Origin: a virus
Reading direction: 5' to 3' (one strand)
Virus record (IMG/VR): IMGVR_UViG_3300037553_000311
Location: 28,685-92,684 of that record
Length of the DNA stretch: 64,000 bases
Positions 4,604 to 44,101 of this stretch are shown one piece after another (the stretch's first letter is position 1; each line of letters starts with the position of its first letter). The translations under genes and the position numbers were made by a program. The notes under the pieces were generated by a model. It made no database searches and was not told the DNA's origin. It saw only the letters and a program-made list of their open reading frames with translations.

Positions 4604-4776
4604 TACACTCTCTCCATATGTTACATTTAAAGAAAGTGAGCAACTTAGTTAATCTCACGATACCACATGCGATCCATTTAAGTGGGTGATTCTTATTATG
4701 CGGCATATCGAATCTATCTATTATTATACAGTGTATCATGATATAAATTCCTATAGTATTTATGATGTGTCTATCA

Positions 4777-6330
4777 TTATTTGATACCTAATATTGACTC
4801 AATGTCAATGTGCTCTATCTTAGATGTAGTAGGATTAGAGTGTATATTTCTAACAAATGCTGGGTTACTATGGACGTCATCTGGTATACCTATAATAGGA
4901 TCTTCAAATAGGTAAGCACAGAACTTGTCTACTTCTGGAGTATCATCAACATATCTATGTTTACCCCATTGCATAGTTAGCCAAGATCTACCAGCATCAT
5001 CGAGTTCAATGTTCATATAAGCTACGAAATCAAATTCTCTCCCTATACCAATACTACCAGCAGTATGTCGTTCACCGAATTGCTTTACTGGATGTGGGAC
5101 ACCTGATCCTACGATATCACTAGCACCTCTATTTAATTGTGCGGCAGTAAAGAACGTAGTACCGACTGCTTTAAAGAAGTTACATGTTCGATTACATAGC
5201 TGATTTATCAATACATCATTACCAGAGCGACTAAATTTACCATCACCTTTCTTCATTAGCAGTAAGTAATCTATGATGCAAGCTACTATATTGTATCCTG
5301 AGTTAGTATACTTTTCATGTAACCTAACTAAGTCATCATAACCAAATTCATCAGGTAAATATCTCTCAATCACTATAGTGAATTCGCCACGATTAAAGTA
5401 ATCATAGATGGCATTTACTACATCTTCATCTGTCATATCACCTGATGGATTATTACCAGTGATAGACTTATACATCTGATTGAACATTTTCATCATACTC
5501 ATGTATCCGATATCTTCAAATGATATAATCAGGATCACTGGCTGTTTCCCAGGTATCTTAGGTGGAGTACTATAATCATTTATCCACTTAGCTAAAGACC
5601 TCAGCATACTACTCTTGTAATTATGTTGCCTAGCACAGAATAATACACTCTCACCTAAATAGAAACCACCTTTACTACCACACATCTTATTGAGACCTTG
5701 TAGTCCAGTCTTCAATATGTAATCTACATGTCTATCTTTATACATAGAGACAGCATCTTTGATACTAGACTTCTTACTAAAGTCAATCTTCTCTACAGGA
5801 CCACCTTTACCTATGAAACTATCGATATCCATGATAGTATTCTTAAAGTCACCTATGAGGTCTTTTATCTCTGTAATCTTATCAGTCTGATCTTCTACGT
5901 TATAAGCTAGTTTACATTCTCTAATGCTCCCATATAACTTACTGATATATGAGTTACTCTTATGCCATATAACTATGTTGTTGAGCTTCTCAGATAGGTT
6001 AGCTAATGTAGTAGCATTTGTCTTAGTCTTCAGTAATCCACGGATAGTTTCCTTTATCACCTTATCTCGTCTGAATACCTTATTACTTAAGTATCGAGTC
6101 ATCAGGTTACTGATATCTGACTTGTTTTCTTCTAGTAGTAATCCCTGGGAGATAACATCTTTGCATAACGATATATATAGATTACAGTAATTGATATTAT
6201 TAGTACTCAATGATGATGCGCTATCGACGTATAATTCAAATAGCTCATCAGCTAGATGCTTAGTTTTTACAGTATTGATATGCATTAGTAGTCTTAGTAA
6301 GTCATAAAATAAAGTAGCATCGATGTGCAT
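4777..6330 (-). CDS. dnaB: DnaB-like replicative helicase (phiKZ gp118-like)
   Basis: TGLQGLNKM, Walker A ARQHNYKS, IIDYL, FTAAQL and GKHR. Divergent from the capsid operon, as in phiKZ-like phages. Confidence 0.85.
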   Translation of the reverse strand: MHIDATLFYDLLRLLMHINTVKTKHLADELFELYVDSASSLSTNNINYCNLYISLCKDVISQGLLLEENKSDISNLMTRYLSNKVFRRDKVIKETIRGLLKTKTNATTLANLSEKLNNIVIWHKSNSYISKLYGSIRECKLAYNVEDQTDKITEIKDLIGDFKNTIMDIDSFIGKGGPVEKIDFSKKSSIKDAVSMYKDRHVDYILKTGLQGLNKMCGSKGGFYLGESVLFCARQHNYKSSMLRSLAKWINDYSTPPKIPGKQPVILIISFEDIGYMSMMKMFNQMYKSITGNNPSGDMTDEDVVNAIYDYFNRGEFTIVIERYLPDEFGYDDLVRLHEKYTNSGYNIVACIIDYLLLMKKGDGKFSRSGNDVLINQLCNRTCNFFKAVGTTFFTAAQLNRGASDIVGSGVPHPVKQFGERHTAGSIGIGREFDFVAYMNIELDDAGRSWLTMQWGKHRYVDDTPEVDKFCAYLFEDPIIGIPDDVHSNPAFVRNIHSNPTTSKIEHIDIESILGIK

Positions 6331-11949: not shown

Positions 11950-12543
11950 ATGATGACAGATGACACTACGATTGATAATGTAGGTAAGGTCGGAGCGATT
12001 GTTTGGGATGATGAATTATTATCATCTAGTGAAGTAGCTAGTAAATTATCAATCACTAAGAAGTATCTACAAAAGCTATATAGTTCAGGATGTAACACTG
12101 AAGCTAAATTACGACAGTGGAAGAGATCTCAGGGTAATAAAGAAGATATCATCATATATAATACTACCAATGGTGAACTATCTCTATCTGAGATAATAGA
12201 TAAGCATCATTATGTAATCGACCGTGTGATACTACTAAAACGTATCGATGATTATGGTGAAGATAGTGAAGCTATCTGGTTACCAGTAAATCATGTTCAA
12301 TTCAAACGATGCTTATCTGAGTTCGGAATCGAATACGTATCTCATACGTCGAATTACCAGGTGATACGAGATGTAAAATTCGATCGAACTAATCACTGTG
12401 CTAGAGTCTATGGGTTCAGATATACATGTGAACATTATAATGATTGTCAAGAATACCGACTAGTGAATAAAACACATCATCCACGTTACGTTAAGGATAA
12501 ATGTTTCGTGAATAGTGAGTTAGAAGTTAATATGACATCTTGA
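11950..12543 (+). CDS. Hypothetical protein with Cys/His-rich C-terminus
   Basis: GGAGG RBS; lies downstream of a promoter/leader module. Confidence 0.75.
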   Translation: MMTDDTTIDNVGKVGAIVWDDELLSSSEVASKLSITKKYLQKLYSSGCNTEAKLRQWKRSQGNKEDIIIYNTTNGELSLSEIIDKHHYVIDRVILLKRIDDYGEDSEAIWLPVNHVQFKRCLSEFGIEYVSHTSNYQVIRDVKFDRTNHCARVYGFRYTCEHYNDCQEYRLVNKTHHPRYVKDKCFVNSELEVNMTS

Positions 12544-12635
12544 TAAATGTCAATCACCCACCTACGCATATGACATGCGTAGGTGGGTATAAATCATTTG
12601 TAGTATAAATTACAACTATATTAGAGGATAGTATA

Positions 12636-12968
12636 ATGCAGGTAATCAACATGACACCATATGTAATCAGTATATTGAATTCAGATAGCATGGTAATAAC
12701 TAAGCTCAAACCATCAGGTAATACAGTAAGATTAGTCAGTACCACTAGTCGTATGGATGTTGTATATTCTGGTAATATTCCTATACCACTGACAGCTACA
12801 GTATTTGGTGAACCTGAAGGCTTACCAAATACTGTAGCTGGTATAGTGTATATAGTCGATGCTTCTGTGAAAGATAAGTATCCAGAAAGAGATGATCTAG
12901 TAACACCAAATGAACCAGTGCGTAATAGACTAGGTAATATCATCGGGTACTGTAGTCTACGTATCTAA
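12636..12968 (+). CDS. Hypothetical protein, homolog of 39793-40119
   Basis: INMTPY/VNLTSH...PSG...LP....G..YIV...DLV.P..R...G.I.G pattern shared with 39793-40119; GAGG RBS. Confidence 0.75.
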   Translation: MQVINMTPYVISILNSDSMVITKLKPSGNTVRLVSTTSRMDVVYSGNIPIPLTATVFGEPEGLPNTVAGIVYIVDASVKDKYPERDDLVTPNEPVRNRLGNIIGYCSLRI

Positions 12969-29578: not shown

Positions 29579-29600
29579 GATCATACATGATCTAAACATT

Positions 29601-29646
29601 CCCATAGCATACCGATATCAGGTATGCTATGGGTTTATTATTTTTT
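29601..29646 (+). terminator. CATAGCATACC hairpin plus T tract
   Basis: Loop gatatca. Confidence 0.8.
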
Positions 29647-29715
29647 ATGCACTCTGAACATGAGTAGATATCTTTACTTACTCTCAAGAGTGAATCCATC
29701 TAATATACTACTATT

Positions 29716-29738
29716 TCAAGTATATATCATTATAGTAG
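29716..29738 (+). promoter_or_regulatory. Putative early promoter
   Basis: tcaagtatatatcattatagtag. Confidence 0.65.
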
Positions 29739-29900
29739 AAGGTATCAGCTACTACTTGATACCTACCACTGATCTTCGATTAGTAGTAAGTATCAGATAC
29801 TACTTTGATGTACATCTACTAATCTAGCGAATATATAGCGTATAGAATAATCTATACGTACACTAAACGTCAGATATATGACACGATACCTTAGGAGGGT

Positions 29901-30605
29901 ATGAATATGGAAGTAAGTAATGAAGTAATGAATATATATGGTAATGATGGAGATCAATTCGATAAAGCAGCTATAGACACCGCTGGTAATATCATCTGCA
30001 TTGGACATGTTAAATCAGAAGGATCTGATACTAAATATCCATTAGTAGTTAAGTATGATACTAATCTTAATGTACTATTTAAGAAGATGTATTATGATAT
30101 TAATTTGGATGAGTTCCGTGGAGTAACTACGGATTCTAGTGGTAATATCATCTGCATTGGATGGACTGTCTCAGAAGAAACTGATTCTGATGTTGCAGTG
30201 GTAGTCAAGTTCGATACTAATCTTAACATAATCGCTAAGAGAATATATGGTGATAGTGGTGGTGATTGGTTCAATGGAGTAGCTACTGACTCTAGTGGTA
30301 ATGTCATCTGTGTTGGACATACTACCCCAGGTAGTACGTCAGGAGCTGGTAGTTATGATGCATTAGTAGTCAAGTTCGATACTAATCTTAACATAATCGC
30401 TAAGAGAATATATAGTGATAGTGGAGATAGTGGTGATGAATTTGACCAAGTAACTACTGACTCTAATGATAATGTCATCTGTGTTGGATGGACTGATTCA
30501 GAAGGAGCTGGTAGTTCTGAATATCCTAATCGTGTAGATGCATTAATAGTGAAGTATGATAGTGATCTTGATATACATTGGACGTACTCATTCAGAAGTA
30601 TCTAG
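29901..30605 (+). CDS. Beta-propeller repeat protein, four repeats
   Basis: Same repeat family. Confidence 0.8.
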   Translation: MNMEVSNEVMNIYGNDGDQFDKAAIDTAGNIICIGHVKSEGSDTKYPLVVKYDTNLNVLFKKMYYDINLDEFRGVTTDSSGNIICIGWTVSEETDSDVAVVVKFDTNLNIIAKRIYGDSGGDWFNGVATDSSGNVICVGHTTPGSTSGAGSYDALVVKFDTNLNIIAKRIYSDSGDSGDEFDQVTTDSNDNVICVGWTDSEGAGSSEYPNRVDALIVKYDSDLDIHWTYSFRSI

Positions 30606-30631
30606 TAGTGATGATACATGATCTAAACATA

Positions 30632-30676
30632 CCCATAGCATACCTGATATCGGTATGCTATGGGAATATTATTTTT
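30632..30676 (+). terminator. CATAGCATACC hairpin plus T tract
   Basis: Loop tgatatc, the reverse complement of the 29601 loop. Confidence 0.8.
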
Positions 30677-30745
30677 ATGCACTCTGAACATGAGCAAACA
30701 TCTTTACCTACTCTCAAGAGTGAATCCATCTAATATACTACTATC

Positions 30746-30768
30746 TCAAGTATATATTACTATAGTAG
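30746..30768 (+). promoter_or_regulatory. Putative early promoter of the nvRNAP beta-prime gene
   Basis: tcaagtatatattactatagtag. Confidence 0.75.
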
Positions 30769-30900
30769 AGATGCATCAGATAATACTTGATACATCTCTA
30801 CTGATCTTCGATTAGTAGAAGGTATCAGATAATACTTGATACCTCCTACTAGATCAGATAGCGCATCATATTAATAATCACACATAGGAGATACCACATC

Positions 30901-32406
30901 ATGAAAGTACTACCAAAGATACTCAACCTAGACGAGCTCTATCATAAGACCCCTAACAAAATCATCTTCAATGAACTACTCATCAGTAAGACACCAGAAG
31001 AAATCATAGATATCATCTGTGATGTAGGTAGTGATAAATCAGACACATTAGCTAGATGCTCATGTGATGCACTCGTAGGTAATTATTACGAAGGTCTCAT
31101 CTGCGCTAAGTGTAATTCTAAATGCATCAGTTCACTCTACTCTAATATCACAATAGATACATGGCTAGAGATACCTAACTCTATAACTAAAGTACTCAAT
31201 CCACAAGTATATATCATCCTATCTAAATGGATGGGTAATAATGCTAAGAAGGTACCTTACCTAGATACTATCGTCAATATCAAAGCTGAACTAGATGAAG
31301 AACTCAAGCCTCATATATTAGGTCAAGGCTTCAATTACTTCTATAGTAACTTCAGTTCTATAATCAATCACTTTGCTAATATCAGAGCTAAGAAACCTTC
31401 TACTAAAGCATTACTCAAGTTCCTAGATAATAATAAGCATAATATGTGGTGCACTAAGCTACCAACTGTCAGTAGTATATTACAACCAGTGACTAAAGCT
31501 AATGGATTTGTAAGATATGTATATCCTAATATCGGATACCTCATCAAGTCTATTATCAATCTCAATGGTATACTCTTATCAGAGAAGATGATGAACTTTA
31601 GTGTGAATCATATAGAGAGACATTTCTTCGCTGTATATTCAGCATTCATTGATTATGTCACAACTATAGCTAAAGAACGTCTCCCAGCAAAGAAGCATCT
31701 ACTACGTAAACATATATTTGGTAGTAGACTCCATTGTACAGCTAGGTCAGTAGCTATACCACTCATAGTAAATCATGAAGCAGATGATGTACATATCCCA
31801 TGGAAGATAGGAGTATCTTGCTGGAAGTATCACATCATCTCTATGTTGATCAATAGACATAGTCACACGATAGCTGATGCATTTAACAGAGTATCTAAAG
31901 CTATCAATGTATATGATCACACGATAGATAAGATAATGCAAACACTCATCAAAGAGTGCCCGTATAAAGGTCTACCAGTACTAATCAATCGGAACCCTTC
32001 ACTACAGATCGGTTCTATACAGTTACTCTTTGTAACTAAAATCAAACCAGGTTTCACTAAACCACCAACACTGATTGAAGAAGACTCAGTGGATAATATG
32101 ATACTAACAGGTGGAAAGGTCACGAATAAGGTAAAGTATAAGTTTCCAAAAGAAGTGACATTAGCTGTAGACGATGGTACCATAGCATCATCTCCACTAA
32201 TCATCGCTGGTTTCAATTTAGATTATGATGGGGATGAGTTACATGTATTCCCAATATTCGAGATGAACATGGTACCTAAGTTAAAGGTACTACATCCAGT
32301 ATCAAAGATATTCAGCAGTAAGTACATCGGAGTTTCTAATGATGTATCACTTAGTAACCAGCAGTTTATTCTCCTAGACGGGTTTGTAAACGATCCTGAT
32401 ATCTGA
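30901..32406 (+). CDS. Non-virion RNA polymerase beta-prime subunit, N-terminal/catalytic part (phiKZ gp55-56.1-like)
   Basis: Zn ribbon CSC...C..C, RKHIFGSR, NRNPSL and catalytic FNLDYDGDE. Confidence 0.92.
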   Translation: MKVLPKILNLDELYHKTPNKIIFNELLISKTPEEIIDIICDVGSDKSDTLARCSCDALVGNYYEGLICAKCNSKCISSLYSNITIDTWLEIPNSITKVLNPQVYIILSKWMGNNAKKVPYLDTIVNIKAELDEELKPHILGQGFNYFYSNFSSIINHFANIRAKKPSTKALLKFLDNNKHNMWCTKLPTVSSILQPVTKANGFVRYVYPNIGYLIKSIINLNGILLSEKMMNFSVNHIERHFFAVYSAFIDYVTTIAKERLPAKKHLLRKHIFGSRLHCTARSVAIPLIVNHEADDVHIPWKIGVSCWKYHIISMLINRHSHTIADAFNRVSKAINVYDHTIDKIMQTLIKECPYKGLPVLINRNPSLQIGSIQLLFVTKIKPGFTKPPTLIEEDSVDNMILTGGKVTNKVKYKFPKEVTLAVDDGTIASSPLIIAGFNLDYDGDELHVFPIFEMNMVPKLKVLHPVSKIFSSKYIGVSNDVSLSNQQFILLDGFVNDPDI

Positions 32407-32580
32407 CCATATTACACTCTAATCTCTATAGCACACTATTACAGTGTGCTATAGAGATTATGTAATAACTTTTAATAGCATCTTACCTATATTATGAGAG
32501 ATACGTCGTCCCACATGGAGTTCGTATCAAATACGATAATCAACACGATAAGTTAGTCGTGACATTTAAGGAGAAGTATA

Positions 32581-34386
32581 ATGAATTCATTAACAGCACC
32601 TGGTAAGATGCACTGTTTCAACTGTGGAAAATACAAGCTAGAGAAACACTTCATGGGTAAACCATCTGGACGATTTGCAATCTGTATGAATTGTATTAAT
32701 GAGTATCTACCTAACGACAAAGCTCAAATCACTGACATGAAACCAGTTCATTCTGGAATGTGTACTAGTGATAAATGTAATCGTACTACTGACCTATATA
32801 CATTCAATGACAAGATCATATGCTTACCATGTTTATATAAGTTATTAGTTAGTTGTATGACTGGTGATAATAGTAATTATATTACATGCTCTCGATGTGG
32901 AGACAATCAACCGATATCTTCTTTTGCTAATAGTGGTAGAACAGTTAACTGGGGTAAGAAGTCAATATGTCGAGGATGTATCAGTGGGAGCGATCACGTT
33001 AAGCATAAACTTATATCAGATATGACTGATAAAGAAATTACAATCACTGAGAAGAAGTGTGGTCATTGTGGAGTAGTGAAAACTATCAATCACTTCAATC
33101 GCCGGAATACTTCAGACGATGGTCTTGCCACACATTGTCAGGTATGTACTAAGTATATAAGAGATTGTCGAACAGCTAATTTAGCTAAGCTTCCAGATAA
33201 GAATCTACCTATCGATGAATATACTGATCTATTAAAACATGTTCACTTCATATGCATCAAATGTAATTCACCCAAACAACTTTCTAATTTCCCTAGCTTT
33301 AAAGATACATATAAACATGTATGCAATAGTTGTACAACATCCAGATTATCAACAACAGCTACTAGTACGTATGCTGATTTTCAAATCAAGTACAAAGCGG
33401 CTAATACTAATCTAGAACACGAAGATGTCCAAAGGTGCTCTAATTGTAAATCGATCAAACCACTATCTCATTTTCATCAGCACCTCAATGGTGTAGGGGG
33501 TGGAATTTCAAAGACCACGTCATGGTGTAAAGCTTGTAGGGTAATTCAGGCAAAGGATCGATGGGGAGATATAAAAGATCATCATGCGGGTGTATGTAAG
33601 AAATATAAAGCTAAATTCCCTGAGAGACGTCTAGCTACTAATTTAGTTAGAACCTCTTTGTTAGATGTCGATGGTATCGTATCTAGATTACCAAATAATT
33701 ATGTCTATCATCATTGGAACTATTCTACTGAACATCACTTAGATGTTATCCAATTGAGTAAAGCTATTCATATCAACTTACATTTAAGATTAGAATATCA
33801 TAGAGATCTTGAAACAGGTACATTCATATTTAGAGATAAGAAAACAGGTGAGCTTTTAGATACTAAAAAGAAGCACGTGTTGGTTATTGATGAGATCAAA
33901 AGTTCAAATCCTAAACTAATTGAACCTATAATAAGTGATCGTCAAGGATTGAAGACTAAATATATAACTAGTAATAAACCTTATGCTAATTTGATAGTAC
34001 CTGTCACAGATGAGACTGAAAAGGTATTCTGTAGGTCTTGTAAAAACTATCTACTGCCTGCATATTTTAATGAGGTACAGACTAATGGTAATGTTAAATT
34101 CATTTATGATGTTTGTACTAGATGTAATACTGTATTAGGAGCTAGACACGATGTGAATAATGATCCAGAAATCAGTAGTATAGATGAGTTGAATACTAAG
34201 GATACTCGTGATTACAGTATCGTTTCGAAACATTGCTATGGGTGTTTAGAATTGAAACCGTTAGCATCATTTCCTCGATCAGCTGCTAATATTTTAACTG
34301 GTAGGCATCGGTATTGCGCCGATTGTGCTAAGTATATACGTGGTACTGACAGTAAACAGGATCACATCAATCATGATGAGTTGTAG
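32581..34386 (+). CDS. Multi zinc-finger protein with an HNH-like core
   Basis: Numerous CxxC pairs with K....F spacing; YHHWNYS...VIQLSKAIHINLH. Confidence 0.65.
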   Translation: MNSLTAPGKMHCFNCGKYKLEKHFMGKPSGRFAICMNCINEYLPNDKAQITDMKPVHSGMCTSDKCNRTTDLYTFNDKIICLPCLYKLLVSCMTGDNSNYITCSRCGDNQPISSFANSGRTVNWGKKSICRGCISGSDHVKHKLISDMTDKEITITEKKCGHCGVVKTINHFNRRNTSDDGLATHCQVCTKYIRDCRTANLAKLPDKNLPIDEYTDLLKHVHFICIKCNSPKQLSNFPSFKDTYKHVCNSCTTSRLSTTATSTYADFQIKYKAANTNLEHEDVQRCSNCKSIKPLSHFHQHLNGVGGGISKTTSWCKACRVIQAKDRWGDIKDHHAGVCKKYKAKFPERRLATNLVRTSLLDVDGIVSRLPNNYVYHHWNYSTEHHLDVIQLSKAIHINLHLRLEYHRDLETGTFIFRDKKTGELLDTKKKHVLVIDEIKSSNPKLIEPIISDRQGLKTKYITSNKPYANLIVPVTDETEKVFCRSCKNYLLPAYFNEVQTNGNVKFIYDVCTRCNTVLGARHDVNNDPEISSIDELNTKDTRDYSIVSKHCYGCLELKPLASFPRSAANILTGRHRYCADCAKYIRGTDSKQDHINHDEL

Positions 34387-34634
34387 ATCAGAATGTCTAA
34401 GTAAGTCAAGCATATATCTTATATAGATGAACTCTATACTAAACTCTCATAACGCTCTCTACATCGGGAGCGTTATGAGAGAGCGTGTGATGATGTTTTT
34501 ATTAGCTGATGATCCACTCTAATAATAGAGCTTCTCTTTTTTTACGGATGCACTTTCAGCATGAGATAATATCTTTTACTACTACTCAAAGTGCATATAT
34601 TTTTAGTATAGAATCAGATGGTAAATGTAGATAT
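34367..34634 (+). repeat. About 270-bp direct repeat, copy 1
   Basis: Near-identical to 36105-36373; includes the NHDEL-stop codons. Confidence 0.9.
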
Positions 34635-34683
34635 TCATATCGGATCTTTGATATATCCCTAGTTACTATATAAGCTCTATATT

Positions 34684-34706
34684 TCAGGTATATATTACTA
34701 TAGTAG
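34684..34706 (+). promoter_or_regulatory. Putative early promoter
   Basis: tcaggtatatattactatagtag. Confidence 0.75.
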
Positions 34707-34870
34707 AGATGCATCAGATGATACTTGATGCATCTCTACTGATCTCTGATTAGTAGATGTGCATAAGATACAACCTGATGTACATCTACTGATCTAGTAA
34801 TGAGATAGCGTATAGAATAATCTATACACACGCTAAAAGTCAGATATCTGACATGATACCTTAGGAGGGT

Positions 34871-36124
34871 ATGAATATGAAAGTGAGTAATGAAGTAATG
34901 AATATCTATGGTAACGATGGAGATCAATTCGATAAAGTAGCGATAGATTCTAGTGGTAATGTCATCTGTGCTGGTACTATCGGATCAGAAGGGACTGGTA
35001 GTCATGTGGGTATATTAATAATCAAGTATGATATTAACCTTAATGTACTAGTTAGAAAGGTATATGGTGGTAGTGGTGGTGATAGGTTCGGACAAGTAAC
35101 TACGGACTCTAATAATAACGTCATCTGTGTTGGATATACACTATCAGGAAGAGCTGGTGATTATGATACACTAGTAGTGAAGTTTGATAGTGATCTTAAT
35201 CTACTAGCTAGGAAGACATATGGTGGTATTATTTTGGATGAGTTCAGTGCAGTAGCTACTGACTCTAATGATAATGTCATCTGTGCTGGGTATACTACTA
35301 GTGAAGATAATTGTTATCATGATGCATTAGTAGTTAAGTTCAGCGGTACTGATCTTAGTATACTAGCTAGGAAAGTATATGGTGGAACTGTCATTGATAT
35401 GTTCCGTGGAGTAACTACTGATACTAATGGTAATATTATCTGTACTGGATATACTCGTAGTGAAGGTAGTGGTTATGATGATACATTAGTAGTTAAGTAT
35501 GATAGTAATCTTAATGTACTAGCTAGGAAATCATACGGTGGTTATGTTTTTGACTACTTCTATGGAGTAGCTACTGATACTAATAATGATATCATATGTG
35601 TTGGGTATACTACTGGTGAAGGTAGTGGTAATGATGATGCATTAGTAGTTAAGTTCAGTGGTAGTGATCTTAGTATACTAGCTAAGAAAGTATACGGTGG
35701 TACAATTAATGACCGCTTCCGTGGAGTAGCTACTGATAGTGATGATAATATCATATGTACTGGACATACTACTTCGGAAGGAGATGATAATGGTAATGTC
35801 ATATTAGTAGTCAAGTTTGATAGTGACCTTAATGTATTAGCTAGGAAGACATATGGTGGGATTGACGATGATGATCACTACCTTGGAGTAACTATAGATC
35901 CTAATGGTAATATCATATATGTTGGACGTACTATTTCAGAAGAAACTAATGATTATACTCCCCTAGTAGTGAAGTATTATACTCCCCTAGTAGTGAAGTT
36001 CCAACGCAGATTATATCAAGTAGCTACTGATACTAATGGTAATGTCATCTGTACTGATGTTAACGATACCGATGAATCTGATAGTCATGAGGATGCGGTA
36101 GTAGTCAATCATGATGAGTTGTAG
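34871..36124 (+). CDS. Beta-propeller repeat protein (paralog family)
   Basis: Seven repeats plus a degenerate eighth. Confidence 0.85.
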   Translation: MNMKVSNEVMNIYGNDGDQFDKVAIDSSGNVICAGTIGSEGTGSHVGILIIKYDINLNVLVRKVYGGSGGDRFGQVTTDSNNNVICVGYTLSGRAGDYDTLVVKFDSDLNLLARKTYGGIILDEFSAVATDSNDNVICAGYTTSEDNCYHDALVVKFSGTDLSILARKVYGGTVIDMFRGVTTDTNGNIICTGYTRSEGSGYDDTLVVKYDSNLNVLARKSYGGYVFDYFYGVATDTNNDIICVGYTTGEGSGNDDALVVKFSGSDLSILAKKVYGGTINDRFRGVATDSDDNIICTGHTTSEGDDNGNVILVVKFDSDLNVLARKTYGGIDDDDHYLGVTIDPNGNIIYVGRTISEETNDYTPLVVKYYTPLVVKFQRRLYQVATDTNGNVICTDVNDTDESDSHEDAVVVNHDEL

Positions 36125-36373
36125 ATCAGAAGGTCTAAGTAAGTCAAGCATATATCTTATATAGATGAACTCTATACTAAACTCTCATAACGCTCCCTAC
36201 ATCGGGAGCGTTATGAGGGAGTGTGTGATGATGTTTTTTATTAGCTGATGATCTATAATCATAAGAGAGCTTCTCTTTTTTATGGATGCACTTTCAGCAT
36301 GAGTAGATATCTTTTACTACTACTCAAAGTGCATATATTTTTAGTAGTGGAATCAGATGGTAAATGTAGATAT
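36105..36373 (+). repeat. About 270-bp direct repeat, copy 2
   Basis: Near-identical to 34367-34634. Confidence 0.9.
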
Positions 36374-36469
36374 ATCTGATCAGATTAGTTAGATATCAGC
36401 TAAAAATAAAGTGCTAAAATAGCACCTCTCCTACCCCTTATAAAACCACGGGTGACAGACCCCCTATTT

Positions 36470-36560
36470 CTACCTGTATATCCCTACGTGACCCCCCATA
36501 TTTGCTATATTTCGTGTTTCCTACGTGCAGTAATATAGGCGTTCAGAAATGGGTATTTCA
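36470..36560 (+). repeat. Diverged TACGTG element
   Basis: gtatatccctacgtga....catatttg..atattt...ctacgt pattern shared with 10051 and 51588. Confidence 0.65.
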
Positions 36561-36684
36561 GTAAGTATGAAACATATCTGAAATTAGTGATAATGTGCTA
36601 CATTCGATACATGATTCTTACACACTCTGAGCATGAGCGAACATCTTTACCTACTATCAAGAGTGCTATCGGTAGCTTACTATT

Positions 36685-36707
36685 TCAGGTATATATCACT
36701 ATAGTAG
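36685..36707 (+). promoter_or_regulatory. Putative early promoter
   Basis: tcaggtatatatcactatagtag. Confidence 0.7.
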
Positions 36708-36868
36708 AGATGCATCAGATAATACTTGATGTACCTCTACTGATCTAGCGATCAGTAGTATACGTAGCTAAGTATGACTCTTAGATATCTAATCACTAGA
36801 TCAGGTAGCATATCAATTAGTATCTGATGTGCTACCTGATTATCAATTCAATATAGGAGGGTAGTAAG

Positions 36869-37351
36869 ATGAGTAAATTAGATAGTAGTAATAAGGTTGA
36901 AACAGTGTACGGTGGTAGTGGTCATGATTTCTTCAATGGAATAACCACTAATATTAACAATGATATAATCTGCGTTGGAACTACTAATAGTGAAGGTACT
37001 GGTGGTCGCGATATATTAGTAGTCAAGTTTGATCCTAACCTTAATGTACTAGTTAGGAATGTATATGGTAGTACTAAATCTGATATATTATATGAAGTAG
37101 CTACTGACTCTAACGATGATATCATATGTGTTGGAACTACTAATAGTGAAGGTACTGGTATCAATACACTACTAGTTAAGTTCAGTGGTAGTGATCTTAG
37201 TATCATATCTAAGAAGGTATATGATGGTACTAGTGCTGATTATTTCTATGGAGTAGCTACTGATGCTAATAATGATATCATCTGTGTTGGGATTACTGCT
37301 AGTGAAGAAGCTGGTAATAATGATGTATTAGTAGTTAAGAGTGTTTCTTAG
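36869..37351 (+). CDS. Beta-propeller repeat protein, three repeats
   Basis: Same repeat family; AGGAGGG RBS. Confidence 0.8.
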   Translation: MSKLDSSNKVETVYGGSGHDFFNGITTNINNDIICVGTTNSEGTGGRDILVVKFDPNLNVLVRNVYGSTKSDILYEVATDSNDDIICVGTTNSEGTGINTLLVKFSGSDLSIISKKVYDGTSADYFYGVATDANNDIICVGITASEEAGNNDVLVVKSVS

Positions 37352-37385
37352 CTACATAATTAATCCAATATAGGAGGGTAGTAAG

Positions 37386-38522
37386 ATGAGTAAAGTAGAT
37401 AGTAGTAAAATAAGTAGTAGTCGTATGATTGAAACGATATATGGTGGCACTGGTTATGTTTTCTATGGAATAACTACTGACTCTAACGATGATATCGTAT
37501 GTATTGCGAATACTAATAGTGGAGAAGGTGACGACATTAACACAGTAACAGTAGTTAAGTTTAGTGGTAGTGATCTTAGTGTCCTAGCTGAGTATGTATA
37601 CGGTAGTTCTGATCGCAATTTCCTCTATGGAGTAGCTACTGACTCTAATGATGATATCATATGTGCTGGGTTTACTGTTAGAGATGGAATTGATAGTAAT
37701 GATGCATTAGTAGTTAAGTTCAGTGGTAGCGATCTTAGTATATTAGCTGAGCAGGTACACAGTGTTACTAGTCGTGATTACTTTTATGACATAGTTACTG
37801 ATCCTGATGGTAATATCATCTGCGTTGGGAATACTTATAGTGAAAGTAGTGTTACCACTGATGCATTAGTAGTTAAGTTCAGCGGTAGTGATCTTAGTGT
37901 CCTAGCTGAGCAGGTATACAGTAATACTGATCATGATAGCTTCCATGGAGTAGCTACTAATCATGATGGCGATATCGTGTGTGTAGGATATACTGCTAGT
38001 GAAGGAGGTATTGGTATGTCTGCGTTAGTAGTTAAGTTCAGTGGTACCGATCTCAGTATACTAGCTAGGAAAGTATACGGTGATACTTGTTACGATTGTT
38101 TCCGAGGAGTAGTTACTGATCTTAATAATGATATCGTGTGTATTGGTCATACTCGTAATGAAGTATCTGACAGTTATGATGGATTAGTAGTTAAGTTCAG
38201 TGGTAGTGATCTTAGTATACTAGCTGAGCAGGTATATAGTGGTACTGATAATGATAATTTTAACGGAGTAGTACTTGACTCTAAAGGTGATATAATGTGC
38301 GTCGGATGGATTATTAGTGAAGAATCTAATAGTCCCGATGCATTACTAGTTACGTTCGATGGTAGTGATCTTAGCATACTATCTGATCAAGTGCTAATCG
38401 GAGAATTCTTCTATGCAGTAGCTACTAATCATAACGGTGATATAGTATGTGTTGGATCGACTTCTAGTGAAGAATCTAGTAGTGCTAATGCATTAGTAGT
38501 GAAGTATGTTAACGTGACTTAG
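37386..38522 (+). CDS. Beta-propeller repeat protein, seven repeats
   Basis: Same repeat family; RBS/start block duplicated from 36869. Confidence 0.85.
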   Translation: MSKVDSSKISSSRMIETIYGGTGYVFYGITTDSNDDIVCIANTNSGEGDDINTVTVVKFSGSDLSVLAEYVYGSSDRNFLYGVATDSNDDIICAGFTVRDGIDSNDALVVKFSGSDLSILAEQVHSVTSRDYFYDIVTDPDGNIICVGNTYSESSVTTDALVVKFSGSDLSVLAEQVYSNTDHDSFHGVATNHDGDIVCVGYTASEGGIGMSALVVKFSGTDLSILARKVYGDTCYDCFRGVVTDLNNDIVCIGHTRNEVSDSYDGLVVKFSGSDLSILAEQVYSGTDNDNFNGVVLDSKGDIMCVGWIISEESNSPDALLVTFDGSDLSILSDQVLIGEFFYAVATNHNGDIVCVGSTSSEESSSANALVVKYVNVT

Positions 38523-38528
38523 TAAAAA

Positions 38529-38580
38529 ACTACCTACCTACCTAGCTACTTAGCTAAGTAGGTAGGTACTTATATTTTTT
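38529..38580 (+). terminator. CCTACCTACCTAGCTA-family hairpin plus T tract
   Basis: Related copies at 40125, 43808 and 44505. Confidence 0.75.
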
Positions 38581-38631
38581 ACTAATTACTAAGGTTATTA
38601 TCTATAGGTAGAAGTGTCATAGTAACTACTT

Positions 38632-38654
38632 TCAGGTATATATTACCTATGTAG
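38632..38654 (+). promoter_or_regulatory. Putative early promoter
   Basis: tcaggtatatattacctatgtag. Confidence 0.65.
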
Positions 38655-38726
38655 TATTATGCATGAATTATAAAAGATCAGTACTCTACATGAGACTGGC
38701 ATAAATATCATAGGAGATAACTTAGT

Positions 38727-39464
38727 ATGAATAAAGCTAAAAGTATACGTGGAATATATAAGACGATGACATGTATCGTCGAATACAAAGATTGCATCAT
38801 TGCAATCGATCGAGCTAACCGTGATGAAGTCATGGTGGTAAAGTTTGATCATGATTTGAATATAGTAGCAATCAGATCTATAAACTGTACAGGGAATATA
38901 TCTAAGGTAAGAGCTGATAATGATCAGATATATGTAGTAGGTTATACCGTTGATCCACGTAATGGTGATGATAGATCACTCATGGTCATCCTGGATAAAT
39001 CTGATCTCAGTATCACTCATACATGTATGGGTGATCACGGTAGTAGATATCGCGGTATTATACTATCACAAGGTAATGTCATATGTGTCGGTAGTAAGCG
39101 TGCTGACATTATCACTAATGTAGATACTGAAGGTATCCTTCAGAAATACTCATGTGAGACTGGTGAATTATTAATCACTAGGACATATTGGCAGAATCGA
39201 TGTAATATCGATCTGAATGGAATCACTAGTGGTGGTGACTATTTATATGTGATAGGTACAATTATCAATATCAGAGATGTACAGGGTGCGATATTATTGA
39301 GATACGATCATAATTTGAACCGGATGGTAGTGAATGTCAATCATTATAGTGATAATATCACACAGTTCGGTAATGTGATATATCAGAATGGTAAACTGAG
39401 GTGCTCCTACATACTTGATGGTAAGATATCTTACCAGACATATGATGCAGCTACGTTAGTGTAA
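38727..39464 (+). CDS. Divergent beta-propeller-like protein
   Basis: VVKFDHDLN, GNVICVG and DLS remnants of the family repeat. Confidence 0.65.
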   Translation: MNKAKSIRGIYKTMTCIVEYKDCIIAIDRANRDEVMVVKFDHDLNIVAIRSINCTGNISKVRADNDQIYVVGYTVDPRNGDDRSLMVILDKSDLSITHTCMGDHGSRYRGIILSQGNVICVGSKRADIITNVDTEGILQKYSCETGELLITRTYWQNRCNIDLNGITSGGDYLYVIGTIINIRDVQGAILLRYDHNLNRMVVNVNHYSDNITQFGNVIYQNGKLRCSYILDGKISYQTYDAATLV

Positions 39465-39629
39465 TAGATTAGATTATACACTCATCTACACATGCGATAT
39501 GTGTAGATGAGTGATGTCTGGTAAGCTTTATATTTTATACACTCTCAGCATGAGTAATATGCATCTACTACTCTTGAGAGTGAGTTCATCAGTAGCTTAC
39601 TATTTTAGAGTATGTAATCTCACGATATC

Positions 39630-39652
39630 TCAGGTATATATTAGTATAGTAG
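39630..39652 (+). promoter_or_regulatory. Putative early promoter (variant)
   Basis: tcaggtatatattagtatagtag. Confidence 0.6.
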
Positions 39653-39660
39653 TAAAATAC

Positions 39661-39804
39661 TAAGAGTGGTTCTTAGTATCTAAGTAGTACCTAGTCTTTA
39701 AGTTCCTAGGTTATCAAAGAACAACGAGTTAGTGCGTAAACTTACCAGTACAACTACTGGGTTGATAACGCACACAAGTACCTTAGGAGGGTATGAATAT
39801 GAAA
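39661..39804 (+). repeat. Structured leader B, copy 2
   Basis: Near-identical to 14086-14227. Confidence 0.9.
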
Positions 39805-40119
39805 ATAGTAAACTTGACTTCCCATCCCATAAATGTTATTAACCCCGACGGAGAGGAATTTATATACCCTCCGTCGGGAATTGAATCACGGGTAGAGGAT
39901 GAACATACTCCTCTACCCGCAATGCCTCTATCACCACCGATGTGTAAATCGGTAATGGGGGAGGTCACGAACCTACCTCCCATCGTACCGGACACTATGT
40001 ATATTGTATCCGGTATCGTCAAGACGCAATGTATTGATCGAACAGACCTGGTCCGTCCAGGTCCCCTGATCAGAGATGAAGATGGTATCATCAGAGGGTG
40101 TGAATACCTCCTGATGTGA
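39793..40119 (+). CDS. Hypothetical cassette protein, homolog of 12636-12968
   Basis: VNLTSHPI...PSG...LP...YIVS...DLV.P; visibly more GC-rich than its flanks. Confidence 0.8.
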   Translation: MNMKIVNLTSHPINVINPDGEEFIYPPSGIESRVEDEHTPLPAMPLSPPMCKSVMGEVTNLPPIVPDTMYIVSGIVKTQCIDRTDLVRPGPLIRDEDGIIRGCEYLLM

Positions 40120-40241
40120 AAACGCCTACCTACCTAGCTAGCTAACTAGGTAGGTATATGACTGTATGCGGTTATATTTTTTTAGTAGATTACTAATGTC
40201 ACTATCTATTTATATTTACCTAGAAAATACCACTACATATC

Positions 40242-40264
40242 TTAGGTATATATTATTATAGTAG
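40242..40264 (+). promoter_or_regulatory. Putative early promoter (variant)
   Basis: ttaggtatatattattatagtag. Confidence 0.55.
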
Positions 40265-40324
40265 TATAAGTAGCTAAGTATGACTCTTAGCTTAAGTATG
40301 TAATCTAATATAGGAGGATTTACA

Positions 40325-41680
40325 ATGGATGTGAATGAGAATAATGAACGTGGAAGTATGAGTGCACTTACTAGTGTATACGGTGGTACTAGTCATGACG
40401 TCTTCGAAGGAGTAGCTATCGATACTAATAATGATATCATCTGCGTCGGGTATACTGCTAGTGAGGGTAGTGGAGATGATGATGCATTAGTAGTTAAGTT
40501 CAGTGGTAGCGATCTCAGTATACTAGCTAGGAAAGTATACGGTGGTATTGGTACTGACTACTTCTGGGGAGTAGCTATCGATACTAATAATGATATCATC
40601 TGCGCAGGGTATACTTATAGTGAAGGTAGTGGTAGTCCATCATACAGCAGTGCTTTAGTAGTTAAGTTCAGCGGTAGTGATCTTAGTATACTAGCTAGGA
40701 AAGTATACGGTGGAGCTGACACTGACTACTTCAATGGAGTAGTTACTGATGATAATAATGATATCATATGTGCTGGGAATACTTATAGTGAAGGTAGTGG
40801 CGGTGCCGATGCATTAGTAGTTAAGTTCAGTGGTAGCGATCTTAGTATACTAGCTAAGAAGATATACGGCGACATTAGTACTGACTACTTCTATGGAGTA
40901 GCTATCGATACTAATAATAACATCATATGTACTGGGTATACCACTAGTGAGGGTAGTGGAAATGTTGATACATTAGTAGTTAAGTTCAGTGGTAGCGATC
41001 TTAGTATACTAGCTAGGAAAGTATATGGTGGAGATGACACTGACTACTTCTATGGAGTAGCTACTGATGCTAATAATGATATCGTCTGTGTCGGATATAC
41101 CACTAGTGAGGGTAGTGGGGATGTTGATGCTTTAGTAGTTAAGTTCAGTGGTATTGATCTTAGTATACTATCTAGTAAGGTATACGGTGGTACTGAGGAT
41201 GACTACTTCTTCGGAGTAGTAGTCGATACTAATAATAACATCATCTGTGCAGGGTATACTAAAAGTGAAGGTAGTGGTGGTACCGATATTTTAGTAGTTA
41301 AGTTCAGTGGTAGCGATCTTAGTATACTAGCTAAGAAAGTATACGGTGGTACTGGTGATGATATCTTATATGGAGTAGCTACCGATACTAATAATAACAT
41401 CATATGTACTGGGAATACATATAGTGAAGGTAGTGGTAGTCCGATATACAGCAGTGCATTAGTAGTTAAGTTACCTAGCGACATACCTGCTGGTACTTTC
41501 GTAGGTCCAGTATTCACTAACTTAACTCTTCAAGATAGTAACCTAACCTTAGCTGATAGTATTTTAACATTAGCTGATAGTAACCTAACCTTAGCAGATA
41601 GTAACCTAACCTTAGCTGATAGTACATTAACCTTAACTGATAGTGATCTTACTCAAGAAGTCGACACTATGGAACTGTAG
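40325..41680 (+). CDS. Beta-propeller repeat protein with C-terminal LADSNLT heptapeptide repeats
   Basis: Seven blade repeats plus a 21-bp tandem repeat tail. Confidence 0.85.
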   Translation: MDVNENNERGSMSALTSVYGGTSHDVFEGVAIDTNNDIICVGYTASEGSGDDDALVVKFSGSDLSILARKVYGGIGTDYFWGVAIDTNNDIICAGYTYSEGSGSPSYSSALVVKFSGSDLSILARKVYGGADTDYFNGVVTDDNNDIICAGNTYSEGSGGADALVVKFSGSDLSILAKKIYGDISTDYFYGVAIDTNNNIICTGYTTSEGSGNVDTLVVKFSGSDLSILARKVYGGDDTDYFYGVATDANNDIVCVGYTTSEGSGDVDALVVKFSGIDLSILSSKVYGGTEDDYFFGVVVDTNNNIICAGYTKSEGSGGTDILVVKFSGSDLSILAKKVYGGTGDDILYGVATDTNNNIICTGNTYSEGSGSPIYSSALVVKLPSDIPAGTFVGPVFTNLTLQDSNLTLADSILTLADSNLTLADSNLTLADSTLTLTDSDLTQEVDTMEL

Positions 41681-41730
41681 TAATACATACATCCAACTAG
41701 TGTATGTAATCTAATATAGGAGGATTTACA

Positions 41731-43095
41731 ATGGATGTGAATGAGAATAATGAACGTGGAAGTATGAGTGTACTTACTAGTGTATACGGTGGTACTAATC
41801 ATGACGTCTTCGAAGGAGTAGTTACTGACTCTAAAGGTGATATCATCTGTGTCGGGTATACTAGTAGTGAAGGTAGTGGAGATGTTGATGCATTAGTAGT
41901 TAAGTTCAGTGGTAGCGATCTTAGTATACTAGCTAGGAAAGTATACGGTGGCACTGGCACTGACTACTTCAATGGAGTAGCTACTGACTCTAATAATGAT
42001 ATCATCTGTATTGGGATTACTGGTAGTGGTAGTGGTAGTCCGATATACAGCAGTGCATTAGTAGTTAAGTTCAGTGGTAGCGATCTCAGTATACTAACTA
42101 AGAAAGTATACGATGATGATGTACATGACCGCTTCTATGGAGTAGCTACTGACTCTAATAATAATAATATCATCTGTACTGGGATTACTGGTAGTGAAGA
42201 TAGTAGTGGTAATAATACATTAGTAGTTAAGTTCAGTGGTAATGATCTTAGTATACTAGCTAGGAAAGTATATGGTGGTACTAGTACCGACTACTTCTAT
42301 GGAGTAGCTACCGATACTAATAATAACATCATATGTGCTGGGAATACTTATAGTGAAGGCGGTGGCAATAATGATGCATTAGTAGTTAAGTTCAGTGGTA
42401 GCGATCTTAGCATACTAGCTAGGAAAGTATACGGTGGCACTGGCACTGACCGCTTCTATGGAGTAGCTACCGATACTAGTGATGATATCGTCTGTGTTGG
42501 GATTACTAATAGTGAAGGTAGTGGTAGTCCATCATATAACAGTGCATTAGTAGTTAAGTTCAGTGGTAATGATCTTAGTATACTAGCTAGAAAAGTATAC
42601 GGTGGAGCTAGTGATGACTACTTCCGTGGAGTAACTACTGATGCTAATAATGATATCATCTGTGTCGGGTATACTAAAAGAGAAGGTAGTGATAGTCCTA
42701 CATACAGAAGTACATTAGTAGTTAAGTTCAGTGGTAGTGATCTTATTATACTAGCTAGTAAAGTATATGGTGGAGCTGGTACTGATATATTCCATGGAGT
42801 AGTTACTAATACTAACGGTGATATCGTGTGTGTTGGGAATACTTATAGTGAAGGCGGTGGTGGTACTGATGCGTTGGTAGTTAAGTTACCTAGTGATATA
42901 CCTACTGGTACATTCACCAGTACCATACGCACTAACTCAACTCTCCAAGATAGTAACCTAACCTTAGCAGATAGCACTTTAACATTAGCTGATAGTAACC
43001 TAACCTTAGCAGATAATGATCTTACATTAACTGATAGTACATTAACCTTAGCAGATAGTGATCTTACTCAAGAATCTGATACTATGGAACTGTAG
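41731..43095 (+). CDS. Beta-propeller repeat protein with C-terminal LADSNLT repeats (tandem duplicate)
   Basis: Same N- and C-termini as 40325-41680. Confidence 0.85.
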   Translation: MDVNENNERGSMSVLTSVYGGTNHDVFEGVVTDSKGDIICVGYTSSEGSGDVDALVVKFSGSDLSILARKVYGGTGTDYFNGVATDSNNDIICIGITGSGSGSPIYSSALVVKFSGSDLSILTKKVYDDDVHDRFYGVATDSNNNNIICTGITGSEDSSGNNTLVVKFSGNDLSILARKVYGGTSTDYFYGVATDTNNNIICAGNTYSEGGGNNDALVVKFSGSDLSILARKVYGGTGTDRFYGVATDTSDDIVCVGITNSEGSGSPSYNSALVVKFSGNDLSILARKVYGGASDDYFRGVTTDANNDIICVGYTKREGSDSPTYRSTLVVKFSGSDLIILASKVYGGAGTDIFHGVVTNTNGDIVCVGNTYSEGGGGTDALVVKLPSDIPTGTFTSTIRTNSTLQDSNLTLADSTLTLADSNLTLADNDLTLTDSTLTLADSDLTQESDTMEL

Positions 43096-43143
43096 TAATG
43101 TACACCTAACTAGTGTATGTAATCTAATATAGGAGGCTTTACA

Positions 43144-43788
43144 ATGGATGTGAACGAGACTAATGAACGTGGAAACATAGCTGAGAAAGTATATGGTGGT
43201 ACTGGTATTGATAGGTTCTATGAGGTAGTTACCGACACTAATAATGACATCATCTGTGTCGGGTATACTGCTAGTGAAGATAGTAATTGTTGGTATGCAT
43301 TAGTAGTTAAGTTTAGTGGTAGTGATTTGAGTATACTAGCTAGGAAGGTATACGGTGGTACTGGTACCGAATACTTCCATGGAGTTACTACTGATACTAA
43401 TAATGATATCATCTGCGCTGGGATTACTGGTAGTGATGATGCATTAGTAGTTAAGTTCAGCGGTACTGATCTTAGTATATTATCTAGTAAGGTATACGGT
43501 GGTAGTGGTGATGACTGCTTCAATGGAGTAACTACTGACTCTAATAATGATATCATATGCACTGGGATTACTGATAGTGAAGGTAGTGGTGGTGCTGATG
43601 CATTAGTAGTTAAGTTCAGCGGTACTGATCTTAGTATACTATCTAGTAAGGTATACGGTGGTAGTGGTGATGACTGCTTCAATGGAGTAACTACTGACTC
43701 TAATAATGATACCGTCTGTGTCGGGTACACTAGTAGTGATGGTGATGATGCATTAGTAGTTAAGTTTAGTGGTAATGATCCTACCTGA
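43144..43788 (+). CDS. Beta-propeller repeat protein, four repeats
   Basis: Third MDVNE-start copy, truncated. Confidence 0.8.
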   Translation: MDVNETNERGNIAEKVYGGTGIDRFYEVVTDTNNDIICVGYTASEDSNCWYALVVKFSGSDLSILARKVYGGTGTEYFHGVTTDTNNDIICAGITGSDDALVVKFSGTDLSILSSKVYGGSGDDCFNGVTTDSNNDIICTGITDSEGSGGADALVVKFSGTDLSILSSKVYGGSGDDCFNGVTTDSNNDTVCVGYTSSDGDDALVVKFSGNDPT

Positions 43789-43930
43789 GTAGTACTAGTA
43801 GTCAAGTACCTACCTACCTGCCTAGCTAAGTTAGCTAGGCAGGTAGGTATATTAGGTAGGTAACTACTTATATTTTTTTACTAATTACTAAGGTTACTAT
43901 CTATAGGTAGAAGTGCCATTTCAACAACTT

Positions 43931-43953
43931 TCAGGTATATATTAAGATAGTAG
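43931..43953 (+). promoter_or_regulatory. Putative early promoter (variant identical to 14053)
   Basis: tcaggtatatattaagatagtag. Confidence 0.6.
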
Positions 43954-43963
43954 TATAGGATAT

Positions 43964-44101
43964 TAAGAGTAGTACCTAGTCTTTAGTTCCTAGGTTGAAA
44001 GGTAGGGAAATCAAAGAACGATGAGTTAGTGCGTAAACTTACCAGTACAACTACTGGGTTGATAACGCATATAAGTACCTTAGGAGGGTATGAATATGAA
44101 A
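43964..44101 (+). repeat. Structured leader B, copy 3
   Basis: Same as 14086 with one deletion and one insertion. Confidence 0.9.

Follow-up and report, generated by a model that had tools for sequence, protein, structure and literature searches.

Two unrelated neighbouring genes in a viral genome end in the same five residues and run into closely similar downstream DNA, and the question this raises is whether one of them sits on a mobile cassette that can still be excised or has had its end rebuilt from the other. The locus lies in IMG/VR record IMGVR_UViG_3300037553_000311 (92,684 bp), of which we analysed bases 28685–92684 (64,000 nucleotides, the window; positions are those of the window unless given as genome or record positions, and features lie on the + strand unless stated). 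The first gene encodes a Cys-rich "zinc-finger" protein of 601 aa (32581–34386, ending in ...DHINHDEL*), the probable donor of the common tail. The second, gene 34871 (34871–36124), encodes an SBBP-type seven-bladed beta-propeller of 417 aa with a disordered patchwork tail at its end. With moderate confidence, we explain the shared DNA as an old, fixed, microhomology-mediated replacement of the propeller gene's 3' end, copied from the zinc-finger locus.

The shared DNA is a direct repeat whose two copies, A (34367–34634) and B (36105–36373), align over 270 columns with 252 identities, 15 mismatches and 3 single-base gaps (93.3% identity, blastn E 1e-111); the longest identical runs between them are 63, 40 and 27 nt. 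The copies (268 and 269 bp) enclose 1470 bp (34635–36104) at an offset that stays constant across the repeat (1738/1739), and no other direct repeat in the whole record that reaches 100 bp and 85% identity has its copies within 3 kb of each other. Identity opens at TCAATCATGATGAGTTGTAG, 17 nt upstream of TAG, and both open reading frames (ORFs) therefore end in NHDEL*. To the left there is no similarity, and to the right it amounts to about 60% for some 20 nt, with the local alignment reaching 34654/36396. An earlier note on this DNA had described near-identical repeats that begin inside coding sequence, a zinc-finger and a propeller protein with the same NHDEL* ending, and exactly one promoter, leader and propeller gene between the copies. 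All of this was confirmed, with "near-identical" meaning 93% over the 270-column alignment and with the coding overlap limited to the five residues NHDEL in two unrelated proteins: the interval 34635–36104 contains one recurrent promoter motif (34680–34708), leader hairpins, a ribosome-binding site (RBS) and the propeller gene.

Read from left to right, the repeat consists of 17 nt of coding sequence and the stop, a 57-nt spacer, a hairpin of 16 bp with a T run set apart from it, a second hairpin (GCACTTT, the M1 hairpin described below) and 35 nt, which in copy A belong to a dispersed element that we call E. The 16-bp stem of copy A (34444–34481, region z-score −4.5) is a presumed terminator; we word this role cautiously because the T run starts ~14 nt past the stem, and it is this detachment owing to which a scan with a terminator consensus did not call the + strand hairpin. 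In copy B, the corresponding hairpin (36182–36219) carries two substitutions, both of which preserve pairing (U.G to C-G and A-U to G.U). Beyond the stop the repeat is non-coding, because the three single-base gaps shift any frame. A small ORF within it (34509–34673) was rejected, as indels between the copies break its frame, and so was HDEL as an endoplasmic reticulum retention signal, which is a coincidence and has no meaning in a phage. The promoter core lies outside the repeat, 46 nt from the right end of copy A and 308 nt from that of copy B.

The left edge of copy B is where the two histories part. Blade DNA of the propeller family reads GTAGTAGTCAAGTTTGAT (VVVKFD) and gene 34871 reads GTAGTAGTCAATCATGATGAGTTGTAG; at the joint, this becomes GTAGTAGTCAAGTTT in the blades versus GTAGTAGTCAATCAT in gene 34871. 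The joint falls in a 4-nt TCAA common to the propeller blade DNA and the zinc-finger gene's ...ACATCAATCATG. Copy B opens with TCAA, and the blade consensus GTAGTAGTCAAG would have the same 4 nt there, so the joint of copy B lies within microhomology. Among 62 blades from 11 paralogs, 52 fit a strict pattern in which the hydrophobic strand is followed by Lys and then F, Y, S or L, and nine of the ten exceptions are register offsets that still show the Lys (61/62 by manual reading). Only the last strand of gene 34871 truly departs from it: VVV passes straight into NHDEL there, and the pattern is broken exactly at the repeat edge. Because no other strand breaks the pattern and the break falls exactly at that edge, we favour the zinc-finger locus as donor and the propeller gene as recipient, a direction that the blade sequences make fairly probable. 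An ortholog of gene 34871 that ended in ...VVK[FY] followed by a CATAGCATACC-type hairpin would support it.

The DNA just upstream of this joint is itself rearranged. A 24-nt tandem duplication (35954–36001; 35954–35977 and 35978–36001, 22/24 identical) encodes YTPLVVKY and YTPLVVKF. It overlaps by 5 nt a 22-nt patch (35997–36018) that is a perfect reverse-complement copy of 36961–36982 and encodes the aberrant FQRRLYQ; the source or twin of this patch encodes a DIICVGT blade segment in the next paralog (gene 36869–37351). A partial blade is present as well, and all three features lie within ~150 nt upstream of the joint. An AlphaFold2 model of the 417-aa protein (35-sequence alignment; mean predicted local distance difference test score (pLDDT) 83, predicted template-modelling score 0.83) shows a confident 7-bladed propeller from residue 1 to ~370, with residues 375–382 and 396–417 at pLDDT below 50. 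In this model, the tail resembles a scar added on to a domain that is itself intact. A microhomology edge next to small templated rearrangements points to break repair or template switching, and we favour break repair or replication template switching because the 24-nt tandem and 22-nt inverted patches lie so close to the joint.

The right edge can be understood from the way this genome builds its intergenic regions. Nearly all of them follow one kit, namely a stop, a hairpin (often CCATAGCATACC...GGTATGCTATGG), a T run, M1, ~20 nt, a promoter-like core, leader hairpins and an RBS. M1 is a GCACTCT-type hairpin (GCACTTTCAGCATGAG...CTCAAAGTGC) with 19 motif hits at 17 distinct sites in the record, one of them inside copy A (34550–34594). 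The promoter-like core P (TATTTCAGGTATATAT.ACTATAGTAG) has 20 copies, all on the + strand, including that of the bracketed cassette at 34680–34708; for 17/20, an ORF of at least 70 aa begins 29–224 nt downstream, the RNA polymerase gene among them. We infer that P has promoter activity, and it would then be a promoter class of the phage, not one particular to propeller genes. Element E (36289–36609, ~320 bp) contributes its first 85 nt to the right end of the repeat. Further copies in the record, given as genome positions, are C1:9602–9910 (− strand) and 12359–12656 (+ strand), both full, and 4703–4876, which is partial. These final 85 nt match the other E copies at 87–91%, and only copies A and B have its first 184 nt. 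Copy B leads on into E at full length; copy A has just the start of E and then ~20 nt of a decayed E-like hairpin. The right edge thus falls within stretches common to such loci, namely the GCACTTT hairpin and the beginning of E, and can be a homologous exchange. No such exchange can account for the left edge, given that the zinc-finger gene and the propeller gene are unrelated.

Element E had no Rfam match and no conserved ORF. Its core of ~130 nt looks nearly identical across four aligned copies (by look, not as a computed figure), and the E copy at genome 12484–12534 has an internal ~46-nt segment that is flipped relative to the remainder of the element.

The most economical history would combine one TCAA microhomology joint with one exchange in the shared M1/E start. 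The copied piece would comprise the last five codons of the zinc-finger gene, its stop, its hairpin/terminator region and the first part of its standard intergenic kit. On the left it would be attached by an illegitimate joint at the TCAA microhomology within the propeller's last beta-strand, and on the right homologous exchange would be possible in the GCACTTT hairpin or the start of E. Two routes could have led there: one repair or template-switch event in which a broken propeller gene received a copy of the zinc-finger 3' end, or a tandem duplication of 34367–36104 followed by homologous deletion between two E starts. Both would yield the observed R-U-R layout. The propeller would have kept its seven intact blades and gained a short disordered NHDEL tail together with a working-looking stop and hairpin, and the zinc-finger and propeller genes would have stayed separate transcription units. 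The consequence for the propeller gene is mundane.

Several points weigh against this replacement. A 4-nt microhomology is weak evidence when taken alone, and the small patches upstream may have arisen independently. The blade argument is the sole basis for the proposed donor direction, the zinc-finger C-terminus having no homolog for comparison, and the tails of the propeller paralogs after the last strand are variable and short, which may leave room for an NHDEL native to the propeller. Searches of viral and metagenome contigs retrieved no relative with the ancestral arrangement.

In a rival reading, copying ran the other way: the propeller cassette would be the original owner of the tail, hairpin and kit start, and the zinc-finger gene would have acquired its end from there, perhaps when this nuclease-like gene was inserted behind the RNA polymerase gene. 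It would fit the complete element E into which copy B runs and the truncated E of copy A, as well as the diverse short tails that the propeller paralogs carry past the last strand, and the zinc-finger gene, an orphan with homing-nuclease-like zinc ribbons, may itself be an insertion. Against the reverse direction, the last strand of gene 34871 lacks the Lys-aromatic pair present in 61/62 blades, with the break lying precisely at the edge of the repeat. Rearrangement is also plain to see immediately upstream, where the model has low pLDDT, and two non-homologous joints would be required at copy A. We consider copying in this direction unlikely.

For the zinc-finger protein, the native C-terminus is not checkable because full-length homologs are absent: its only full-length match was itself, both among 5.8 billion sequences and among 1.84 billion representatives, all other matches being at the level of domains. 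It carries Stc1/endonuclease-VII-type zinc ribbons, many CxxC pairs and an HHWNY...H..LH stretch. Matches to nuclease families (phrog_5558, 2340, 2633 and 2255; Stc1, PF12898) are confined to the zinc-ribbon parts, residues 284–441 match small unannotated proteins, and no Pfam nuclease domain was found in the protein; judging from these partial matches, a nuclease role is possible. The gene stands directly behind an RNA polymerase beta-prime fragment and has no P motif of its own.

Logan contigs from 4 marine runs of 4 studies covered 33000–34424 and 35674–36162 (35724–36162 in run X4) with 0 mismatches, placing both left junctions in all 4 runs. Proteins with the same ends are found in NCBI/ENA assemblies, on contigs of up to 61.6 kb. 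The NHDEL end is also present in one strain variant (P0275, NCBI/ENA), which has 9 substitutions, all in residues 174–194 (blade 4; window 35390–35452). Over 77 aa, the window version is identical to P0008, a 704-aa paralog from a 67-kb JGI contig. By this comparison, residues 174–194 are a blade-sized gene-conversion patch that is polymorphic in nature, and conversion of blades between paralogs is ongoing in this family. Copies A and B differ at 18/270 columns (6.7%), in ~11 separate events. As the copies have diverged this far while the sampled populations are identical over kilobases, we regard the event as old and fixed, and as the contigs of the 4 studies and P0275 all carry the joint, it predates the sampled diversity. 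Joints and loose ends in the contigs were rejected as variants of the locus, since they derive from paralogous blades and other E copies; one of them, a loose end following 36469, agrees with the flipped E copy at genome 12359 and was not counted as a variant.

An assembly artefact, named in the earlier note as a result that would speak against it, came out negative: the copies differ in 18 columns, independent contigs from 4 studies run over both left junctions, and NCBI/ENA proteins have the same ends. Of the recombination footprint proposed there, the recombinational origin is supported, but unequal crossover is not, as only 268 bp match at 93% and the rest is ~67% alike and differently laid out. 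A plain tandem duplication of the 1738-bp unit by unequal crossover with later divergence could draw on the constant spacing (1738/1739) across the repeat and on the tandem propeller genes that follow. Past copy B, however, the sequence is only ~67% like the unit and has another arrangement, in which element E and a further hairpin are joined by two genes whose N-terminus differs. Whether as a tandem duplication or as an artefact, an origin of this kind is very improbable.

The other form of recombination in the earlier note, Campbell-type integration, would have a ~1.74-kb circle (one repeat, promoter and propeller gene) enter behind the zinc-finger gene by homologous recombination and remain excisable. 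The 268-bp direct repeats, with identical runs of up to 63 nt, do surround exactly one promoter-gene unit, the genome is built of repeated terminator/promoter modules that bracket other cassettes too, and excision would restore an intact zinc-finger gene and a normal intergenic region. Promoter-early stem-loop (PeSL) modules of phages RB49 and phi1 are known to yield circles (PMC2839356). However, crossovers in PeSL modules are intergenic (PMC2839356), whereas this repeat begins within two unrelated coding sequences and leaves out the promoter core. The chimeric joint between propeller blade and zinc-finger tail would have to exist before the circle formed, which adds an illegitimate step, and the bracketed unit encodes the propeller only and no recombinase. 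Its copies have diverged by 6.7%, both junctions occur in all 4 runs, and contigs are about as deep over the unit as over its flanks, though depth of this kind is a weak measure. No empty site, circle junction or variant lacking the unit was seen in the contigs, although sensitivity was poor: the contigs stop at 34424 and 36162, inside the repeat, and deletion and circle forms are invisible in them. Excision between the copies would be physically possible given identical runs of up to 63 nt, but a Campbell-type circle is the less parsimonious history, and we judge it rather unlikely.

Bracketing by direct repeats is in any case shared by other cassettes of this genome, because every intergenic region uses one kit. 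The flanks of gene 34871 align as direct repeats over 294 columns at 91.5%, and flanking direct repeats at 70–78% were found for genes 28463 and 10519 and for the ORF at genome 21651. Another propeller gene (29901–30605) lies between direct repeats at 29579–29836 and 30610–30871 (267 columns, 86%), which start right after stop codons; this is a clean intergenic version of the bracketing of gene 34871. In such modular genomes, footprints of a "mobile cassette" need to be compared with the genome-wide kit, as bracketing repeats are the rule here and do not single out any one element.

Gene 34871 matched PF06739 with 26.9 bits (cutoff 20.5), has blades of ~52 aa and 1025 homologs, and its model had the CylK propeller as best PDB match (E 2e-23, TM 0.78). 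At least 11 propeller paralogs are present in the 92.7-kb record. Most relatives elsewhere are ~700 aa long, with an extra N-terminal region of ~280 aa that weakly matches a tail-fibre family (phrog_6049, E 8e-4) and C-terminal LTLADS repeats; the tail-fibre-like N-terminal region is not encoded anywhere in this record. It is conceivable, though improbable, that promoter-propeller units leave the genome as small circles and insert again at kit modules, so that there is live cassette traffic and the patchwork 3' end reflects error-prone, recombination-driven propeller diversification. If true, this would mean a diversified repertoire of propellers whose full-length relatives look like tail-fibre proteins.

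Among the other propeller genes, the tandem pair in 40325–43095 (451 and 454 aa) keeps the C-terminal LTLADS repeats and is without the N-terminal region. Past copy B, a second M1 hairpin and P core (36622–36709) lie ahead of the next propeller genes (36869, 37386) and would drive them. An RBS and start region is duplicated there (36839–36891 versus 37356–37408, 92%) before consecutive propeller genes of 160 and 378 aa, both starting with MSK.DSS, and the two look like a split or internally re-initiated propeller gene.

The source is a marine jumbo phage with phiKZ-type RNA polymerase genes, as judged from its presence in marine metagenomes and from its RNA polymerase match to phiKZ-type jumbo phages. 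At least part of the record was found in 17 marine metagenome runs from 14 studies, and 7/17 held at least half of the sampled words. The ORF at 30901–32406 is an N-terminal beta-prime-like fragment of a multisubunit RNA polymerase (phrog_2987, E 2e-78) and is 24–28% identical to RNA polymerase subunits of phiKZ-type jumbo phages. CheckV put the completeness of the record at ~32%, from which we extrapolate an estimated whole genome of roughly 290 kb. A DNA search of a phage database with window 32500–39500 gave 0 matches. Related loci were sought in viral contigs with the zinc-finger protein, the RNA polymerase fragment and P0008, and in metagenome contigs with P0008, and none was confirmed. 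An exact 27-mer of the repeat start had 0 matches in viral and metagenome contigs, sets that may omit near-identical records. Nothing relevant emerged from an Rfam search of 30000–44000 and a tRNA scan.

On its own, the repeat pair is an ordinary recombination scar of a known kind, and the wider kit and the mosaic propeller family are more interesting. Its value is that of a dated, base-resolved example of how an accessory gene is rebuilt in a jumbo phage, with kit exchange at one end and, at the other, a microhomology joint that hands the gene a foreign stop and hairpin. Scars of microhomology-mediated template switching or break-induced repair are known as rearrangements of the fork stalling and template switching (FoSTeS) or microhomology-mediated break-induced replication (MMBIR) type and as quasi-palindrome template switches. 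The present locus resembles them in its microhomology joints of 4–5 nt, clustered with 24-nt tandem and 22-nt inverted patches within ~150 nt. It differs in that the mechanism is deduced here from the sequence scar alone and the patches might be independent.

Phage "morons" are independent promoter-gene-terminator units that lie between core genes. The bracketed unit is similar, being self-contained (promoter motif, RBS, gene and hairpin) and placed among accessory propeller and small genes beside an RNA polymerase gene. Where a moron brings in a single foreign gene, the cargo here belongs to a large paralog family within the genome (at least 11 copies in 92.7 kb), and its terminator appears to be borrowed from the neighbour.

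The closest parallel is found in the PeSL mobile regulatory cassettes and mini-circles of T4-type phages (Arbiol et al. 2010, PMC2839356; Comeau et al. 2014, PMC4122927). In RB49 and phi1, circles of PeSL modules were detected by inverse PCR, with one circle species in ~1 of 10^5 virions, and the crossovers fall inside the intergenic motif, between stem-loop, -10, Shine-Dalgarno sequence and ATG (PMC2839356). As in those phages, repeated hairpin-plus-promoter modules in variable regions bracket single accessory genes here and offer homology for their gain, loss or swap. The PeSL model is the circle model of the earlier note, and it fits the general design of this genome. The differences are that this phage is a jumbo phage with phiKZ-type RNA polymerase genes and that its module is longer (hairpin, T run, second hairpin, promoter and leader hairpins). 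In addition, the promoter core lies outside the repeat studied here, and the repeat extends into two coding sequences by 17 nt, which implies one illegitimate joint.

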